Shown here in pieces: positions 1 to 6,085 of a DNA stretch of 6,085 nt. The number at the start of each line of letters is the position of its first letter. Positions within the stretch are counted from its first letter, which is position 1. The position numbers were made by a program, and so were the translations under genes. This DNA is from a virus. The notes beneath the pieces were generated by a model. That model did no database searches. It saw only the letters and a list, made by a program, of their open reading frames with translations, and was not told the origin of the DNA. The stretch covers positions 1 to 6,085 of IMG/VR virus record IMGVR_UViG_3300022758_000173, one strand, 5' to 3'.

Positions 1-127
1 AAAAACTATCAACTATATTACAAAATACATGTTAAAAATCGACGAAAAGCACCCAAAATTCAGAGGAAAGGTGCTTTGTTCGGCAGGAATAGGATCAGGC
101 TACCTCAAGCGAGAGGACGCCAAAAAA
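1..127. repeat. Terminal direct repeat, copy 1. This is the redundancy expected when a circular genome is assembled past its start.
   Basis: Bases 1-127 match 5959-6085 base for base by eye, at an offset of 5958 nt (a multiple of 3). The repeat is limited by the window at both ends and lies inside the Rep reading frame. Confidence 0.96.
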
Positions 128-559
128 CATGTATATATACCAGGCAAAACAAATGAATCATACCGAATGAGAAACGGAGGAAAACTCAACCTACCTATCT
201 ATTACAGAAACAAAATATTTACAGAAGAAGAACGTGAAAAATTATTCCTAGACAAAATTGAAAAAGGGATAGTATACGTACTAGGCATCAAAATAGACCT
301 AAAGACCGAAGAATCAAGATATATAGGGGTACTCGTAAGCGAACGAGAACGATGTGAAAGAATATATTACGACAATCCAAAGGATTGGGAAGAAAGAAAA
401 TATCTCAACAGACTCAAAAAACAAAGACAATGGATAGAATCTAAAGCGACTAAGATCGCCGAGAAGGAAAGGAAAAAAGAAGAAAGAAGTGAAAAACGAC
501 TAAATAACGACATTGATTTATTCGCCAATATATATTACAACAACCATTCCTATACATAA
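2..559 (+). CDS. VP4: Replication initiation protein (HUH rolling-circle Rep, VP4/gpA-like), C-terminal part. It is the same gene as 5477..6085, continued across the circular junction.
   Basis: The frame is open from base 2 and is the frame of 5477.. shifted by 5958. TAT ATT ACA AAA TAC at 14-28 encodes YITKY, the two-tyrosine motif 3 as in phiX174 gpA. The stop is TAA at 557-559. The track ORF 29..559 begins at an internal Met (about residue 171). Confidence 0.93.
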   Translation, partial: KTINYITKYMLKIDEKHPKFRGKVLCSAGIGSGYLKREDAKKHVYIPGKTNESYRMRNGGKLNLPIYYRNKIFTEEEREKLFLDKIEKGIVYVLGIKIDLKTEESRYIGVLVSERERCERIYYDNPKDWEERKYLNRLKKQRQWIESKATKIAEKERKKEERSEKRLNNDIDLFANIYYNNHSYT

Positions 560-618
560 GCTGCGCTACAGCACAGCCAGCGGCGCGACTGCGTTTTAAT
601 CAAACTACTTTGTATTTA

Positions 619-647
619 ACACCTCAAGGCCGGGCGGCCAAGGGTGT
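619..647 (+). repeat. Hairpin / inverted repeat
   Basis: ACACC(T) at 619-624 pairs with (G)GGTGT at 642-647. The inner stem pairs GGCC at 628-631 with GGCC at 636-639 around loop GGGC. A small internal loop separates the two stems. Confidence 0.7.
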
Positions 648-713
648 ATAACAGGAGGGCGAGGTATGCCTTAATCCGGGAGAAAACTACCTTAAGACCA
701 GGATAAGGAGTGA

Positions 714-743
714 CGTGCACCCGACCAAAGGTCGTGGTGTGCG
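714..743 (+). repeat. Long hairpin of 13 pairs with one bulge
   Basis: CGTGCACC CGACC at 714-726 pairs with GGTCG (T) GGTGTGCG at 730-743. The loop is AAA, T735 is a single bulge, and two of the pairs are G.T wobbles. Confidence 0.75.
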
Positions 744-774
744 GCTTCGCCGATATCAAGGTGCTAGTCGCTAA

Positions 775-793
775 GGAGGGCTATGCGCCCTCT
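775..793 (+). repeat. Hairpin. It is the second copy of the AGGAGGGC...TATGC unit.
   Basis: GGAGGGC at 775-781 pairs with GCCCTCT at 787-793 (7 pairs, one a G.T wobble) around loop TATGC. A related unit, AGGAGGGC at 653-660 with TATGC at 665-669, forms a weaker hairpin at 656-672. Confidence 0.7.
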
Positions 794-880
794 GTTACTC
801 CATCACCGTTCAAACGCCACGGAGGCTTAAAAATACTACTGCTAATTAAAGTTAAAAACAAAAGATAAATAACAGAAAAT

Positions 881-911
881 TTTGCAAAATCAAAAAAAAC
901 ACGCATATTTG
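881..911 (+). promoter_or_regulatory. Candidate Bacteroidetes-type promoter (-33 TTTG / -7 TAnnTTTG)
   Basis: TTTG lies at 881-884 and cATATTTG at 904-911 (one mismatch to TAnnTTTG), with a 19-nt spacer. It sits about 30 nt upstream of the first small ORF, in an A/T-rich leader. Confidence 0.3.
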
Positions 912-939
912 TAGTGTAATAAAAAACAAGGAGGTAAAT

Positions 940-1086
940 ATGTTAATAACAAGAACAAAAGTACGCGGATTTAAAGCGGTAACCATCAAAGATATACCGA
1001 CACGTATCGCAACAAGACACTACTTCGCATATCAAGAAGTAGAAGGAAGAGAAATAAAATTAATAATAACAAAAAAAACTTTTTAA
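940..1086 (+). CDS. Small basic hypothetical protein (48 aa). A J/VP8-like DNA-binding role is only a guess.
   Basis: ATG at 940 follows AAGGAGGT at 928-935. My hand translation is MLITRTKVRGFKAVTIKDIPTRIATRHYFAYQEVEGREIKLIITKKTF, with TAA at 1084-1086. It has 11 K/R against 4 D/E. It is absent from the track, which lists no ORF shorter than 60 aa. Confidence 0.4.
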   Translation: MLITRTKVRGFKAVTIKDIPTRIATRHYFAYQEVEGREIKLIITKKTF

Positions 1087-1088
1087 TT

Positions 1089-1289
1089 ATGGCAGCAACA
1101 AAATTTACAGCAATCTACGTAAACAATGAAGGCAAAATTATCGAAAGAGAAATTCCAGGTATGAACACGTATAAAATAGCGGAAAAATTCGCCAAAATGC
1201 TAAACGACCCGGAAGAAACCAAACTAGTATGTGTAGTAGAATCGTGGAAATTATATCCTAAAGAAAATGAAAAAACCGAAAAGAATTAG
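1089..1289 (+). CDS. Hypothetical protein (66 aa)
   Basis: This track ORF starts 2 nt after the previous stop, which is tight microvirus-style packing. I recognise no motif. Confidence 0.4.
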   Translation: MAATKFTAIYVNNEGKIIEREIPGMNTYKIAEKFAKMLNDPEETKLVCVVESWKLYPKENEKTEKN

Positions 1290-1644
1290 AAAATATACAG
1301 TAAACGGATATATTTTCGATACATTTCAAGAGTTAAAGAAATATATATATTTTCATATATCTTCAAAACAAAAGAAAATAGGTTACGAACTAGATGAAGA
1401 TGTTATTACAAAAAAATACATCTTCACAAAACAAGAAAGGAGGTTATTATGTAAAAAAACTTATGACAAAGATTTAGAAGATTTAAAAAAATGGGAAAAA
1501 AAACAATTAAAACTATTTTATCATGAAAATCAACGGGACTCAATGGGTAGAAATTATCCGAGCTATTTCGACCGCAATAATTGCGATAATTACAACTCTT
1601 TGCGTGCAAAGCTGCACAATGAGTTTAAGCGTAGCCAAGAATAA
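1267..1644 (+). CDS. Hypothetical lysine/arginine-rich protein (125 aa)
   Basis: This track ORF overlaps the upstream ORF by 23 nt. It has a basic N-terminus (MKKPKRIRKY) and no recognised motif. Confidence 0.45.
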   Translation: MKKPKRIRKYTVNGYIFDTFQELKKYIYFHISSKQKKIGYELDEDVITKKYIFTKQERRLLCKKTYDKDLEDLKKWEKKQLKLFYHENQRDSMGRNYPSYFDRNNCDNYNSLRAKLHNEFKRSQE

Positions 1645-1729
1645 TAACAACGCTTCGCAAAAAACCGAACAAACGTCTACTAGTTCAATAGACTCAACAA
1701 AAATAAATATTAATCCTAAAAACTATTAA
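1523..1729 (+). CDS. Small predicted membrane or lipoprotein-like protein (68 aa), overprinted on the 3' end of 1267..1644
   Basis: This track ORF has an N-terminal hydrophobic helix (WVEIIRAISTAIIAIITTLCV) followed by VQSC, a weak lipobox-like cysteine, and then a polar N/S/T-rich tail. It lies in the +1 frame relative to the overlapped ORF. Confidence 0.4.
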   Translation: MKINGTQWVEIIRAISTAIIAIITTLCVQSCTMSLSVAKNNNNASQKTEQTSTSSIDSTKININPKNY

Positions 1730-1734
1730 AAAAA

Positions 1735-2004
1735 ATGGAACAAGAATTTAATGACATGAGAGATGTATTCAAAGTGTTACCAACAACACAAGAAGAAAAA
1801 GAATACATGATTGTAATTGGAAATCATTTGGCAACAACAGAAAAATTTCCAACACGTGAAGCAGCAGAAGAGAAAATCAACTCTGTAGACTGGAATCTAG
1901 TTGCAGCGATGATATATGCTTGCAAAGAAGCGGACGAATACGAAAAAAAATTAAAACACTCCGCAAAAAAAGCTACAAAAAAAATTACTAACAACAATAA
2001 ATAA
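1735..2004 (+). CDS. Hypothetical protein (89 aa) immediately upstream of the capsid gene
   Basis: This is a track ORF. The segment YMIVIGNHLATTEKFPTREAAEEKINSVDWNLVAAMI resembles small ORFs I recall upstream of VP1 in gut microviruses. That recollection is unverified. Confidence 0.5.
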   Translation: MEQEFNDMRDVFKVLPTTQEEKEYMIVIGNHLATTEKFPTREAAEEKINSVDWNLVAAMIYACKEADEYEKKLKHSAKKATKKITNNNK

Positions 2005-2012
2005 AAAAAACC

Positions 2013-3947
2013 ATGGGAATACAAAGAAATATTGGTAAAAATACCATAGGAGACAATAATAAAATGTCCGTTAGTCTACATGATTACAACATGTCGACAC
2101 ACGATTTATCAACAATCGTAAGAAACACACAGAGCCCGGGAACACTAGTTCCAAACCTATGCATAGTAGGGCAAAAAGGGGATACATTCGATATCGACAT
2201 TGATTCAAACGTACTTACACATCCAACAACAGGACCTTTATTCGGTTCATTCAAACTAGAACATCACATATATACAGGACCGGTAAGACTGTATAATAGT
2301 TGGTTACACAATAACCGGACAAAAATTGGACTGAACATGGAGCAAGTAAAATTGCCACAAATAAAAGTAACTATAAAAACGTTACAGGATACTCCTTCAA
2401 ATGATGAAAAACAATGGATACAAGTAAATCCAAGTTGCCTACTAGCTTATCTAGGTATCAGAGGATACGCTAATACACCCAAGAGTGGAGAAGGAGTAAT
2501 AAATAAAAACGCGCTACCTATATTAACATATTTTGATATATTCAAAAATTACTACGCAAACACACAAGAAGAGAATTTCTATATGATTGGAACATCTCCA
2601 AAAATAACAGCGGTAGTAAATAACAATCCAATTCCAGATACTGATAATATACCGCTAAACCTAGGAGGAATAACAAACGGAAAAACAATCACAATAACTC
2701 CAATTACAATAACCGAAAAAGAGTTATTATTAAGGGTTAAAACATCAACAAACGCAAGAGAGCAAGTGATGACCCCATCACAATTAGGAAACTTTAGTTC
2801 ACAAATAGACGAAGTAGAAATTGCGATAACAAAAATACCATCAGGGCAAACATGGTATGTGACAGCAATATATTCAACAAAAAGAACATCTCTAGAAAAA
2901 TATCCGCTAGAAAATCTAGACACAATCAGAGATAAAATACTAATGACACCGGGAGATACAGTATTTGACATATCAAACGAAAACATGAGTGTTGCACCAT
3001 TAAAAAACTTTGCGAAGAGAAGCGCGCAAGGTGATCTAAACACATCCTTTACACAATACGGACTATGTCTAAAAACATACAACAGCGATGTATACCAAAA
3101 TTGGATTAACACCGAATGGATAGAAGGCACAACCGGAATCAACGAAGCAAGTGCGGTGGATGTAACAGACGGCAAACTATCCATGGACGCACTAAATTTA
3201 GCTCAAAAAGTATATAATTTCCTAAATAGAATTGCAGTAAGCGGAGGTACATATAGAGATTGGCTGGAAACAGTATACACGGGCGGAAACTACATGGAAA
3301 GATGCGAAACGCCAATGTTTGAAGGAGGTGTAAGCCAAGAAATCGTATTTCAAGAAGTAATAAGCAACAGCGCAAGCCAAGACGAACCACTAGGAACACT
3401 AGCAGGAAGAGGTGTGACAACGGGAAGACAAAAGGGCGGACACATTCGAATCAAGGTAACAGAACCATGCTATATAATGTGTATATGCTCAATCACACCA
3501 CGCATCGACTACGGACAGGGCAACACATGGGATACATATCTAGAAACCATGAATGATTGGCACAAACCAGCACTCGATGGAATCGGGTACCAAGACTCAT
3601 TAAACGGTGAAAGAGCATGGTGGACGGACTACATTGCATCCAACGGAGCAAAATTAACAAAAACAGCAGTCGGAAAGTCTGTGGCATGGATAAATTACAT
3701 GACAAATGTAAACAGAACATTCGGAAACTTTGCACCAGAAATGCCAGAAAGCTTCATGGTACTTAACCGAAATTATTCAATGAACGGACAGGGACAAATA
3801 GAGGACTTAACAACCTATATCGACCCAGTAAAATTCAATTATATATTTGCTGACACAAATCTAGACGCTATGAATTTTTGGGTACAAACAAAATTTGACA
3901 TCAAAGTAAGACGTCTAATCAGTGCAAAACAAATTCCTAACCTATAA
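2013..3947 (+). CDS. VP1: Major capsid protein (Microviridae VP1 / F-like), 644 aa
   Basis: This is the longest ORF. The N-terminal STHDLS...RNTQSPGTLVP...GDTFDID...HPTTGPLFGS and the C-terminal ...WVQTKFDIKVRRL... are patterns I recognise from Gokushovirinae/Alpavirinae VP1. The size fits Alpavirinae-like capsids. Confidence 0.93.
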   Translation: MGIQRNIGKNTIGDNNKMSVSLHDYNMSTHDLSTIVRNTQSPGTLVPNLCIVGQKGDTFDIDIDSNVLTHPTTGPLFGSFKLEHHIYTGPVRLYNSWLHNNRTKIGLNMEQVKLPQIKVTIKTLQDTPSNDEKQWIQVNPSCLLAYLGIRGYANTPKSGEGVINKNALPILTYFDIFKNYYANTQEENFYMIGTSPKITAVVNNNPIPDTDNIPLNLGGITNGKTITITPITITEKELLLRVKTSTNAREQVMTPSQLGNFSSQIDEVEIAITKIPSGQTWYVTAIYSTKRTSLEKYPLENLDTIRDKILMTPGDTVFDISNENMSVAPLKNFAKRSAQGDLNTSFTQYGLCLKTYNSDVYQNWINTEWIEGTTGINEASAVDVTDGKLSMDALNLAQKVYNFLNRIAVSGGTYRDWLETVYTGGNYMERCETPMFEGGVSQEIVFQEVISNSASQDEPLGTLAGRGVTTGRQKGGHIRIKVTEPCYIMCICSITPRIDYGQGNTWDTYLETMNDWHKPALDGIGYQDSLNGERAWWTDYIASNGAKLTKTAVGKSVAWINYMTNVNRTFGNFAPEMPESFMVLNRNYSMNGQGQIEDLTTYIDPVKFNYIFADTNLDAMNFWVQTKFDIKVRRLISAKQIPNL

Positions 3948-3960
3948 AAATTATAACATT

Positions 3961-4277
3961 ATGAATATTCAAAACCAACAAAAAACAACGGAAGACTAGA
4001 ACCTGTAGAAATATATGAAGGTGAAAGTATTGAAACAAAATGCGCAAGAGTACTAGAAAACGGGGAACCAATCACAGACACCGCACCAATAATCTATACA
4101 GCAAAAGAAGATGGAGTACTGCCAGCATACAATATCCGAACAGACAGGTTTGATATTGCAATGAACGCATACGACAAAATGACAAGAAATTCGGCAAAAA
4201 AGGAAATAGCACCTAAGCCGGAAGATTTCGGGAATGTACCTAATAAAACAGACGGAGGGTCACCAAGTGAAAACTAA
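3961..4277 (+). CDS. Small microvirus protein of unknown function, with a disrupted frame. The ATG at 3961 is in frame 1 and the protein-like body at 3957-4277 is in frame 3.
   Basis: My hand translation of frame 3 is ...RLEPVEIYEGESIETKCARVLENGEPITDTAPIIYTAKEDGVLPAYNIRTDRFDIAMNAYDKMTRNSAKKE...SEN, with TAA at 4275-4277. The frame has no ATG, GTG or TTG near its 5' end. The ATG-led frame stops at TAG 3997-3999. An A6 run at 3980-3985 lies in the overlap. I recall the (I)YT..K.DGV.P.YNIRTDR(F/W).IA motif from gut microvirus hypothetical proteins, unverified. Confidence 0.6.
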
Positions 4278-4281
4278 ACTG

Positions 4282-4301
4282 TTTGAAAAGGTATTTTCAA
4301 A
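4282..4301 (+). repeat. Perfect 8-bp hairpin (TTTGAAAA / TTTTCAAA, loop GGTA)
   Basis: Base pairing of 4282-4289 with 4294-4301 was checked by hand. Confidence 0.8.
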
Positions 4302-4304
4302 GCC

Positions 4305-4377
4305 TTGTAGGTAACAAGCACTCCGGAGTATTATCCGGTTTAATTACCGGATAATACACGAAAGTACGCACCTACAA
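4305..4377 (+). repeat. Nested stem-loop. An outer 8-bp stem encloses a 10-bp palindrome and a perfect 12-bp hairpin with an A/T loop.
   Basis: TTGTAGGT at 4305-4312 pairs with ACCTACAA at 4370-4377. ACTCCGGAGT at 4320-4329 is a perfect palindrome. GTATTATCCGGT at 4328-4339 pairs with ACCGGATAATAC at 4346-4357 around loop TTAATT. Confidence 0.8.
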
Positions 4378-4401
4378 TTTAATATCAAGTAATATGAATA
4401 T

Positions 4402-4420
4402 CGCTTTGAACATCAAAGCG
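4402..4420 (+). repeat. Perfect 8-bp hairpin (CGCTTTGA / TCAAAGCG, loop ACA)
   Basis: Pairing of 4402-4409 with 4413-4420 was checked by hand. It shares the TTTGA / TCAAA core with the hairpin at 4282-4301. Confidence 0.8.
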
Positions 4421-4437
4421 CGAAAATGTAAATAATT

Positions 4438-5328
4438 ATGATAGGAGAAATAATGGGAATAGGAGGAGCTCTAATGGGAGTACTCAATGCAAACAGTGCA
4501 AGTAACCAAAGCTGGCAAAGACAACACCAGCTAATGGAAATACAAGCTGAATTGAACAGAAAAAACGCCAAGTTCAATACAGCGCAAGCGAAAGAAATGT
4601 GGAATTACACCAACTTTGAAAACCAAATGAAACACATAAAAGAAGCAGGACTAAGTCCAGGGCTAATTTATGGAATGGGAGGACAAGGAGGTTCAACGCA
4701 AGGAGCAGGAGCAGCAAACGGAGTAGGACTACCTCAAGATCAATCCGTAGGAATGGGTCTAAGAGCACAAGAAATCGGAGTAGAAATGGCAAATGCGCTA
4801 AGCCAAATCAAACTTAACGAAAGCCAAGCCAATAAAAACGAAGCCGAAGCGAATAAAATCAAAGGCGTAGATACAGAAGCACAACAAGCTACCATTGACA
4901 ATCTGATAGCGCAGACCTCAAACGAAAAAATAAAGCGAGGGCTCATATTAGGACAAATCAGAGTAGCAGACGCCGAAGAAGAACTCAAAAGAAATACCGC
5001 AGATTGGACGAAAGAAAAAATTGAAGAAACACGCTGGAACATCAAAAGCTTACAAAAGGGAATTGATAAACTAACAGCGGAAATTGACGGAGTAGAACTC
5101 GATAACGACCTCAAAAAAAGAACAATCGACAACAAAGCCAAAGAAAGCGCTCTAACGCTTCAAAATCTAATGGCTGAAATATTACTTAAAGGAAGTCAAC
5201 AAAAAGTCAATGAAGAGCAAGCAAAAGCAATTCCGGCACAAATTCTACAAGGATGGGAAGAACTTACCAAAAAGGAAAAGCACTCATCATCCAAAGAGAA
5301 CAAATGGAAGCCTATGTACAAGACGTAA
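4438..5328 (+). CDS. VP2: Minor capsid / DNA pilot protein (VP2, H-like). It probably continues into 5274..5474 after a -1 frame change.
   Basis: The ORF has a Gly-rich hydrophobic N-terminus (IGGALMGVLNANSAS). The segment ...MWNYTNFENQMKHIKEAGLSPGLIYGMGGQGG is a pattern I recognise from microvirus VP2. A long charged segment that looks like coiled coil follows. An alternative start is ATG 4453, preceded by AGGAG at 4443-4447. Confidence 0.85.
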   Translation: MIGEIMGIGGALMGVLNANSASNQSWQRQHQLMEIQAELNRKNAKFNTAQAKEMWNYTNFENQMKHIKEAGLSPGLIYGMGGQGGSTQGAGAANGVGLPQDQSVGMGLRAQEIGVEMANALSQIKLNESQANKNEAEANKIKGVDTEAQQATIDNLIAQTSNEKIKRGLILGQIRVADAEEELKRNTADWTKEKIEETRWNIKSLQKGIDKLTAEIDGVELDNDLKKRTIDNKAKESALTLQNLMAEILLKGSQQKVNEEQAKAIPAQILQGWEELTKKEKHSSSKENKWKPMYKT

Positions 5329-5474
5329 TAAACAGATACGAACTAGGCAAAAAAGGTCTGGATATTGAAGAGCAAAAGCTCATCAAAGACATTATATTTG
5401 GAATGCTAGAAATAGCTTCAAAAGGAGCAGGAGCAGCACTAGGAGCAAAAGTAGGTAAAACAGGTTTTCAATAA
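5253..5474 (+). CDS. Either the C-terminal extension of VP2 reached by a -1 shift, or an independent 73-aa overlapping ORF
   Basis: The frame-3 ORF overlaps the VP2 end by 76 nt. It stops at TAA 5472-5474, 2 nt before the Rep ATG. Its charged helical sequence and Gly/Ala-rich tail (KGAGAALGAKVGKTGFQ) read like a continuation of VP2. C AAA AAG lies at 5268-5274 within the overlap. Confidence 0.5.
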   Translation: MGRTYQKGKALIIQREQMEAYVQDVINRYELGKKGLDIEEQKLIKDIIFGMLEIASKGAGAALGAKVGKTGFQ

Positions 5475-5476
5475 TT

Positions 5477-6085
5477 ATGTGTCTATATCCTAAACTCATA
5501 CCAAATAAGCGGTACCTACCAACAAAAAAGAATGGCGGGATACCGCCTGTTTGTCCTGACGAAAGACTACGTTATGTAACAGCAGCATGTGGAGACTGTT
5601 ACGAGTGCAGGAAACAAAAACAAAGACAATGGGTGGTAAGAATGTCAGAAGAAAACAGGCAAACACCAAACGCCTACTTTCTGACACTAACAATCGATGA
5701 TAAATCATACAAACAACTAAAACAAAAATACAAATTAAAAGATAATAACGATATTGCAACAAAAGCTATAAGACTATGCTTAGAGAGAGTACGAAAATTA
5801 ACCGGAAAATCCGTAAAGCACTGGTTTATTACAGAACTAGGACACGAGAAAACAGAAAGATTGCATCTGCATGGAATAGTATGGGGCTTGGGGAATGGAG
5901 AGAAAATAACGAACAATTGGAAATACGGAATCACATTCACCGGATATTTTGTGAATGAAAAAACTATCAACTATATTACAAAATACATGTTAAAAATCGA
6001 CGAAAAGCACCCAAAATTCAGAGGAAAGGTGCTTTGTTCGGCAGGAATAGGATCAGGCTACCTCAAGCGAGAGGACGCCAAAAAA
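5477..6085 (+). CDS. VP4: Replication initiation protein (HUH rolling-circle Rep, VP4/gpA-like), N-terminal part. It is open at the window end and continues as 2..559.
   Basis: ATG is at 5477. My hand translation is MCLYPKLIPNKRYLP...CGDCYECRKQKQRQW.... It contains FLTLT (motif 1, 5678-5692), HLHG (HUH motif 2, 5864-5875) and YITKY (motif 3, 5972-5986). The full gene is 1041 nt, or 346 aa, on the circle. The track omits it because no stop falls inside the window. Confidence 0.95.
   Translation, partial: MCLYPKLIPNKRYLPTKKNGGIPPVCPDERLRYVTAACGDCYECRKQKQRQWVVRMSEENRQTPNAYFLTLTIDDKSYKQLKQKYKLKDNNDIATKAIRLCLERVRKLTGKSVKHWFITELGHEKTERLHLHGIVWGLGNGEKITNNWKYGITFTGYFVNEKTINYITKYMLKIDEKHPKFRGKVLCSAGIGSGYLKREDAKK
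5959..6085. repeat. Terminal direct repeat, copy 2. It duplicates 1-127.
   Basis: Same comparison as copy 1. The window length of 6085 equals 5958 + 127. Confidence 0.96.

Follow-up and report, generated by a model that had tools for sequence, protein, structure and literature searches.

A structured island downstream of the Rep gene

The window, i.e., the whole stretch of 6,085 nt analysed here (positions 1 to 6,085 of the IMG/VR virus record IMGVR_UViG_3300022758_000173), covers the full circle of a microvirus genome (5,958 nt), read with a 127-nt terminal redundancy. Every gene of this genome is on the + strand, and directly downstream of the Rep gene lies a GC-rich island that is a real, conserved, multi-hairpin non-coding element of ~280 nt (hereafter, the cassette), which is, as far as we found in the literature, undescribed. 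The Rep stop codon occupies positions 557-559, and the cassette begins one base later, at 561. The parts of the cassette and the other features of the genome are the following.

561-840, + strand: whole cassette, CTGCGC... to ...GGCTTAAAAATACTAC, with the ends (561 and about 840) taken from a multi-genome alignment
619-647, + strand: P1 hairpin, ACACCTC...GGGTGT, with the inner stem GGCC-GGGC-GGCC
643-712, + strand: purine-rich 5' domain, with T-N-T-A at 645-648 in invariant columns
714-743, + strand: long bulged hairpin (LH), 716-726 paired with 730-741, T735 bulged, AAA loop
742-752, + strand: small GC hairpin (SH), CGGC-TTC-GCCG, abutting the linker; helix 2 of covariance model R1
753-774, + strand: unpaired linker, ATAYYAWGGWGCTA(G)WCGCT(AA), with invariant GG.GCTA and CGCT
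775-793, + strand: post-linker hairpin (PH), GGAGGGC-TATGC-GCCCTCT; helix 3 of R1
806-822, + strand: class I 3' hairpin, CCGT-TCAAACGCC-ACGG
4278-4437, - strand: region B, a second structured non-coding region, outside the cassette
5477 through the junction to 559, + strand: Rep (Pfam REP_ORF2-G2P)
2013-3947, + strand: capsid protein (Pfam Phage_F)
4438-5328, + strand: pilot protein
616-759 (- strand), 710-868 (+ strand) and 781-906 (- strand): mechanically called open reading frames (ORFs) over the island, 41-52 aa

The G+C content of positions 560-829 is 54.6% (148 of 270) against 35.8% in the remainder of the 5,958-nt genome, in agreement, to within a single base, with a preliminary description of the locus in which 147 G+C had been counted and a GC-rich island in an AT-rich microvirus had been recognized. 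The hairpins named there, at 619-647, 714-743 (13 pairs with one bulge) and 775-793, are all present, and so is the repeat AGGAGGGC...TATGC at 653-669 and 774-786. Two additional pairings fared less well. The segments GCGACT (585-590) and AGTCGC (766-771) are indeed complementary, but the helix of ~190 nt that they would close is not kept in relatives: two elements (L047 and L050) carry ACAACT opposite AGTCGC, and AGACGC is found in most elements. The alternative pairing of ACACC with AGGTG of the core is neither conserved nor backed by covariation. The island had also been described as free of ORFs; the mechanical ORFs listed above do overlap it but are not coding, given that the loops of homologues vary by indels of 1-2 nt and their stems by compensatory substitutions. 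A GenBank "hypothetical protein" (UYL88422.1) is annotated across the element at positions 1433-1675 of OP549868.1 (L004); given the frame-breaking indels and compensatory stem changes in homologues, this annotation is probably spurious.

Folded as RNA, the + strand of the island reaches -100.5 kcal/mol (z = -2.3 against dinucleotide shuffles). As single-stranded DNA (ssDNA), positions 600-840 fold with -40 kcal/mol (z = -2.8), a stability equalled in 0 of 200 shuffles. The complement strand folds less exceptionally (z = -1.8).

Conservation, covariation and distribution

A blastn search of GenBank phages identified the island in 27 microvirus records, with a sequence identity above that of the coding regions. 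Further copies were retrieved by an exact-core scan of IMG/VR, by scans anchored on the arms of the long hairpin, which do not depend on the core, and by a metagenome scan. Altogether, the cassette is present in more than 150 microvirus genomes or contigs, once per genome, and is restricted to microviruses. The covariance model R1, which comprises LH, SH, the linker and PH (116 positions, 22 pairs), gives 88 hits in 87 viral loci with scores of 42-136 bits, the extra hit being located in a 12.1-kb dimer; the hit in the window spans 687-802 (136 bits), and metagenome contigs contribute at least 65 further copies.

In the alignment A4 (80 distinct rows), which was fitted to R1 and therefore favours structure, 98.5% of the paired cells are standard pairs, compared with 81.2% in shuffled alignments and 28-52% with slid partners; 15 of the 22 pairs are changed on both sides (249 cells), and the covariation score was reached by 0 of 500 shuffles. 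The same compensations are seen in plain MAFFT alignments. Covariation in homologues had been put forward in the preliminary description as the way to check the structure; across these 80 distinct sequences the three hairpins covary strongly, the cassette is kept in relatives as a family, and we consider conservation together with covariation over ~80 homologues decisive. The elements can be grouped into classes by their 5' and 3' domains; the central module is common to all classes.

The cassette is absent from phiX174, G4, phiMH2K, SpV4 and Chp2. In line with the initial failure to place the island in any RNA family, cmscan with the 4,227 covariance models of Rfam gave no match to the island of the window at E<=10 and none to six relatives spanning the five other classes at E<=1, and ARAGORN detected no tRNA or tmRNA. 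No copy of the element was found by a scan of 185,579 bacterial and archaeal reference genomes with a 16-mer of the core; the 73 16-mer matches obtained are attributable to chance, with spans of only 16-25 nt and ~280 matches expected randomly. A blastn search of 72,556 plasmids with two cassette classes yielded no match either.

Architecture of the cassette

The best supported part of the cassette is the central module. LH contributes 11 pairs to R1 (helix 1), 7 of which show double-sided changes, with 97.9% of the cells paired, and in PH such changes affect 7 of 7 pairs, with 99.4% of the cells paired. In SH, the pair 744:750 occurs as C-G in 43 elements, G-C in 28 and A-T in 8. The linker between SH and PH, ATAYYAWGGWGCTA(G)WCGCT, is conserved without being invariant across elements; on the opposite strand, it reads CCTTAGCG[T/A]CTAGC and includes a CS-6-like TAGCGT/A.

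The flanking domains are more variable. P1 is found in class I elements, and class II elements have other upstream hairpins instead. In the 5' domain, a stem recognized by eye (AGGTA at 662-666 with TACCT at 688-692) is represented by GGTAG/CTACC in some elements and by GGATT/AATCC in others. The segment GGTGTA (643-648) may pair with TACTCC (796-801) and so close the element. The 3' hairpin shows compensatory variants in the alignments (CCG/CGG, GCG/CGC, TCG/CGA and GCGC/GCGC) that are outside the formal covariation count. Two other candidate pairings were discarded, namely a P3 stem of CCTTA (690-694) with TAAGG (704-708), which is unsupported on alignment A4, and a long-range pairing of CCU (691-693) with AGG (760-762) suggested by RNAalifold, which is almost invariant and is uncompensated in core variants. 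The segment GCCCTCT (787-793) has potential alternative partners in the adjacent AGGAGGGC at 774-781 and in its distal copy at 653-660; the distal pairing continues via TAACAG/CTGTTA to about 11 bp and is only partly conserved in relatives.

Exchange between two lineages with a common host

The cassette has been repeatedly exchanged between lineages with almost unrelated Rep and capsid proteins that share a host. The second lineage, in which the cassette is antisense to all genes (hereafter, the inverted lineage), has a Phage_F capsid protein, a REP_ORF2-G2P Rep of 556 aa and genomes of about 6.3-6.6 kb. When the window is compared by blastn with one of its members (L162), the only nucleotide similarity in the entire genome is located at 571-840 (84% identity over 271 nt, E 8e-80). 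The proteins of the same two genomes are barely comparable, with 28-33% identity over less than 65 aa for Rep and 21% for the capsid protein. Across the lineages, the identity of the module is up to 91-92%, and the module tree requires at least eight lineage switches.

Within each lineage, the position of the cassette in the gene order is constant. The multi-genome alignment shows no terminal repeats, target duplication or conserved flanking motif at the cassette borders; the left junction is preceded by ...ACATAAG in one lineage and by ...GGGAGGA in the other. Several genomes of the inverted lineage (L162, L143, L154, L008 and others) have a long, near-perfect GC-rich hairpin of ~65 nt, CGAGGAGCACA...CTATGCAG-CTACGCC-TGCATAGG...TGTGCTCCTCG, directly 5' of the cassette and adjoining its left border; this hairpin is absent in the lineage of the window.

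Both lineages are targeted by a single type II CRISPR array (positions 4291-9250 of L017, IMGVR_UViG_3300008060_000094), which consists of 65 repeats of 47 nt with Cas9 and an NMENI-type Cas1 encoded upstream. At least 22 of its 64 spacers match both lineages, which therefore share a host. Spacer 55 corresponds to the linker of the island and matches 41 genomes, the broadest range of all spacers, which makes the linker the broadest CRISPR target among these phages. The contig carrying the array is classified as viral in IMG/VR and has the appearance of host DNA. The host is probably not a Firmicute and may belong to Bacteroidota.

The element is missing from two more distant relatives, Dulem virus 214 and bajarodmic virus 670, in which other hairpin-rich sequence fills the gap after the Rep gene. 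Such hairpin-rich slots without the element are located at L204:4656-4877 and L205:4600-4918. The latter contains GGTGCTAGAACGGGACGTTGCCCGT, which resembles the linker with the post-linker hairpin, and may be a very diverged version of the element.

Polarity of the cassette and strand asymmetry

The + strand of the cassette coincides with the A-rich strand of the genome in 87 of the 87 genomes of the first set and, among the matches listed, in 42 of the 42 genomes of an independent metagenome set. Thus, all 129 genomes have the same polarity with respect to strand composition, with 97 cassettes co-oriented with the genes and 32 inverted. The AT skew of the coding strand is +0.35 in the lineage of the window and -0.18 in the other lineage. 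At third codon positions, it is +0.43 to +0.58 in the window (50-53% A) and -0.43 to -0.74 in L162; the values for phiX174, G4, Chp2, SpV4 and the inverted lineage together span -0.30 to -0.74, the mirror image of the window. A cultured gokushovirus, phiMH2K (L140), is mirrored in the same way as the window, with third-codon skews of +0.33 and +0.52.

Because the skew is strongest at third codon positions, it is mutational rather than a consequence of protein composition, and host codon usage does not explain the difference between the lineages because these share a host. The natural cause is which of the strands spends time single-stranded. If the skew is set in this manner, the polarity of the cassette is tied to the polarity of replication or packaging. 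In phiX174 and G4, the packaged strand is the coding strand. Third-codon T-richness is found on the coding strand in phiX174, G4, Chp2 and SpV4 and on the non-coding strand in the lineage of the window, a pattern suggesting that some microviruses may package their non-coding strand.

Folding strand, packaged strand and region B

The pairs themselves contain some information on the strand that folds. There are 196 cells with G.T wobbles, confined to three helix-end positions, as against 15 scattered A.C cells and 11 other mismatches, and one of the wobble positions clearly covaries (G.T in 42 elements, C-G in 25 and A-T in 10). With RNA parameters, the minimum free energy (MFE) of the + strand is the lower one in 69 of 81 elements, by 7.2 kcal/mol on average. 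Wobbles and RNA-parameter MFE together are suggestive of the A-rich + strand as the folding strand. As a strand call, this was not retained: DNA parameters leave a strand difference of -1.6 kcal/mol over the full cassette and none over the three-hairpin module.

Other clues, namely a nick motif in region B, the third-codon skew and the CS-6-like hexamer of the linker, hint at the T-rich strand as the packaged one; the mirrored skew of phiMH2K calls for caution here. Region B, read on the non-coding strand, consists of a small hairpin (4402-4420) that covaries, followed by ACTTGATATTAA (4393-4379) and a 73-nt hairpin (4377-4305) whose 5' arm always starts with ...TGCGTAC in relatives. The sequence ACTTGATATTAA reproduces 12 of 12 bases of the phiX174 origin (CAACTTG^ATATTAATAAC) and is antisense to all genes. 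The region is present throughout the lineage of the window, in the same position and always on the T-rich strand, with the motif T[AT]TACTTGATA[AT][AT]A, and is, as judged from its sequence, the likely candidate for the Rep (viral-strand) origin of this lineage. In the inverted lineage, phiX-like sites are located inside coding regions. In Chp2 (Chlamydia phage 2; L142:2894-2945), the coding strand of the VP3-ORF8 intergenic region forms a perfect hairpin, CTAGCGTATAACAG...CTGTTATACGCTAG, with a phiX174-like nick motif, CTACTTGATCT, in its loop; this hairpin is a plausible Rep origin.

Of 81 elements, 41 have the CS-6-like hexamer (TAGCGT or TAGCGA; CS-6 as given in PMC4598088) in the linker, exclusively on the T-rich strand, with a chance expectation of 1.3% per shuffled linker. 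The other 39 elements scored have AGCG[T/A] in the linker. A match of six bases carries little weight, and an RSB-like block was not observed.

A candidate complementary-strand origin

On balance, and with a confidence only somewhat above even, the cassette can be viewed as a self-contained, cis-acting and strand-specific complementary-strand origin that would depend on the host machinery, in the manner of the G4 oric or the single-strand origins (sso) of plasmids, without being homologous to them. This reading is favoured because it accommodates the covarying hairpins, the single copy per genome, the independence of Rep and capsid, the exchange of the cassette and the locking of its orientation to strand asymmetry. 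It was also the conservative reading of the preliminary description, and it remains the best fit to the evidence, albeit an indirect one, even though two of the structural proposals that came with it (the 190-nt helix and the ACACC pairing) are unsupported.

Under such a mechanism, the single-stranded genome would enter the cell, and the GC-rich hairpins would remain folded amid protein-coated DNA, displaying the conserved linker to the host primase or RNA polymerase; the host enzyme would then make a primer at this site for the complementary strand. The G4 oric is primed by primase, and M13 ori(-) and plasmid ssoA are primed by RNA polymerase. Recognition by the host rather than by the phage Rep would make the cassette swappable between unrelated phages of one host, and the swap would work only in the orientation that places the cassette on the packaged strand.

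Several considerations weigh against this interpretation. The putative function is deduced from the anatomy and distribution of the cassette, which has no homology, in sequence or in structure, to the G4 oric, the phiX174 primosome assembly site or plasmid sso elements. Phylogenetic non-independence affects the counts by lineage and orientation, a concern that is lessened by the at least eight exchanges. The long hairpin of region B could itself bear the complementary-strand signal. Finally, the clues on the folding strand and on the packaged strand conflict: should selection act on the fold in the non-packaged strand, a purely DNA-level sso model fails and an RNA-level model (primer or other) is needed. 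In one speculative model that would reconcile these clues, virions would contain the T-rich strand, and copying of the cassette from it would yield a primer RNA of + sense that might be structured.

If the cassette marks the replicative polarity of the genome, one of the two lineages, which have opposite coding polarity relative to it, would have to package the strand that is antisense to its genes. The clues described above indicate that this might be the lineage of the window, which would then be a negative-sense microvirus; we regard this assignment as tentative, a serious possibility that falls well short of being probable.

Alternative explanations

The alternative that survives best, if still an unlikely one, is that the cassette is an autonomous structured non-coding RNA gene (regulatory, anti-defence or host-mimic) expressed in + sense independently of any DNA priming. 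The covarying multi-helix architecture has the size and complexity of a structured RNA, and the ability of GCCCTCT to pair with either copy of AGGAGGGC (653-660 or 774-781) might serve as a switch. The wobbles and the RNA-parameter stability favour the + strand, but the asymmetry is negligible with DNA parameters; furthermore, most hairpins end in variable loops of 3 nt and not in tetraloops of the GNRA or UNCG type, and no Rfam family matches. In the lineage of the window, the element is sense-oriented just after rep and hence would be transcribed anyway, whereas in the 32 genomes in which it is antisense, it would need a promoter of its own; however, no promoter-like motif is conserved across the classes, and a scan, limited to the sigma-70 consensus, revealed no bracketing sigma-70-type promoter or terminator. 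An RNA gene also provides no reason for a polarity that stays fixed relative to strand composition through at least eight transfers.

A hairpin that abuts a conserved single-stranded stretch is typical of the sites of HUH nucleases. The linker beside the small hairpin resembles such sites, so that the cassette could be part of a Rep-dependent viral-strand origin (a site of nicking, termination or Rep binding, with the nick in the linker) or a packaging-coupled signal, an element that would be polarity-locked as well. Read on the opposite strand, the linker of 57 out of 82 elements is CACCTTGATATCG, which agrees with the phiX174 sequence CAACTTGATAT in 10 of 11 positions, and some genomes of the inverted lineage have no better non-coding phiX-like site. 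The equation of the core with the phiX174 nick site on the basis of this 10/11 match was dropped after core-independent anchors had retrieved elements with GATACTATGG or GATACTAAGG from each of the two lineages. Owing to these variants, 19 of 79 elements no longer have the phiX-like sequence, and no other site has changed correspondingly. Reps that can hardly be aligned share one and the same cassette, whereas an origin normally co-evolves with its Rep, and in the lineage of the window, region B provides a better, independently conserved and hairpin-flanked site (12 of 12). Two direct-repeat rolling-circle origins in one genome give rise to sub-genomic circles, as a second origin would do here, and ~280 nt with five or more hairpins would be elaborate for a nick site. 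We consider an origin of this kind to be quite improbable.

It is very unlikely that the cassette is a selfish miniature element of the IS200/IS605 type, inserted strand-specifically into ssDNA and devoid of a phage function. Such an element would be consistent with a sharp-bordered cassette that moves between unrelated genomes and has hairpins near both ends, and insertion specific for ssDNA would also lock the polarity. Nevertheless, there is always exactly one copy, in a gene-order position that is fixed per lineage, without terminal inverted repeats, target duplication or a conserved target at the left junction. The bacterial genomes and plasmids searched, where a host transposase would also put it, contain no copy, and the cassette is retained by all close relatives, the distant ones having other structured sequence in the slot.

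A role in lysogeny, as a folded or duplex attP/dif-like target of XerC/D, would be strand-specific too and has a precedent in Bacteroidales microvirus prophages with dif-like flanks, for which a CTXphi-like single-stranded mechanism has been suggested (PMC3091885), but it is extremely unlikely given that no copy of the element is found in the 185,579 reference genomes, that the linker is unlike the 28-bp dif (two 11-bp arms and a 6-bp spacer) and the stems of 4-13 bp are too short, and that both contigs joining microvirus and bacterial genes have their junctions in the capsid or pilot gene, not in the island. In these two contigs (L223:1-6026 and L282:1-6284), the microvirus genes are joined to genes for Hsp33, a methyltransferase, a PLD-type enzyme, a PEP-utilising enzyme and patatin; they are probably chimeric assemblies, the alternative being decayed prophages.

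Comparison with known initiation elements

Among the known initiation elements with which the putative complementary-strand origin can be compared, the mapped G4 oric, located between genes F and G, comprises 136 nt with three hairpins and 58% G+C in a 46% genome and is annotated with its primer. Like the cassette, it is a non-coding, GC-enriched multi-hairpin island with a short conserved single-stranded stretch between hairpins, in one copy per genome. The cassette differs in being about twice as long (~280 nt), in having five or more hairpins and in being common to lineages with unrelated Reps. With filters off, the best hit of R1 in G4 scores 7.0 bits (E 0.64) and is not at oric.

In plasmid ssoA, CS-6 is located in a hairpin loop; in contrast, the cassette has its CS-6-like hexamer in the linker, and only 41 of the 81 elements contain it in full. 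The cassette also shows no similarity to the 72,556 plasmids and belongs to a phage replicon rather than to a plasmid. In other respects, the plasmid elements (ssoA, ssoU, ssoT and ssoW) are similar to it, as orientation-dependent, position-flexible, modular, exchanged and host-restricted stretches of 150-300 nt of folded ssDNA. Function in a single orientation has an indirect counterpart in the common polarity of 129 of 129 cassettes despite 32 inversions relative to the genes and at least eight transfers. Both are Rep-independent, modular and host-specific, and alternative cassettes occupy the same slot in relatives. The published account of sso elements lists orientation dependence, flexible position, restriction to particular hosts, shuffling as cassettes, a length of about 160 nt and folding for priming by RNA polymerase (PMC5703833).

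Nothing was found with R1 on phiX174. The primosome assembly site of phiX174 (PriA n') is in essence a single long hairpin that is recognized by shape, whereas the cassette combines several short GC hairpins with a strongly conserved unpaired stretch, an arrangement that suggests recognition by sequence. In region B, the long hairpin (4305-4377) is more similar to the primosome assembly site than the island is. That site is described as an intergenic hairpin at which complementary-strand synthesis starts, and intergenic hairpins with compensatory substitutions in reekeekee- and roodoodoo-microviruses have been tentatively regarded as minus-strand initiation sites (PMC9865509). The latter are one or two simple hairpins within single clades, for which neither exchange between lineages nor an analysis of polarity was reported (PMC9865509).

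Implications for microvirus replication

The conversion of ssDNA to duplex outside the phiX174/G4 group is essentially unknown, and the cassette is a concrete candidate for this step: its borders are sharp, it is described by a covariance model, and its natural variants number more than 150. The determinants of host range in abundant gut microviruses are likewise unknown, and the swapping of the cassette parallels that of the sso cassettes that set the host range of plasmids. The cassette further provides a marker of replicative polarity that is readable from sequence only, by which two gut lineages have their genes oppositely oriented with respect to strand asymmetry. This opposite coding polarity is the most surprising by-product of the analysis. 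It allows a direct test of whether the coding strand is packaged in all Microviridae, as has been assumed. If the negative-sense assignment is true, an abundant human-gut lineage, that of the window, would consist of negative-sense microviruses, and the cassette would be read either as a fold of the non-coding-strand DNA or as a structured primer RNA.

At a practical level, at least one GenBank record presents the element, probably wrongly, as a protein, and the element breaks or inverts assemblies. A contig of 10,494 nt from a close relative of the window (L211, OGMX01001410.1) is an inverted-repeat chimera in which 1-5102 is the reverse complement of 5393-10494 and the turnaround segment includes the island (5187-5303); this arrangement is probably an amplification or assembly artefact at strong hairpins.

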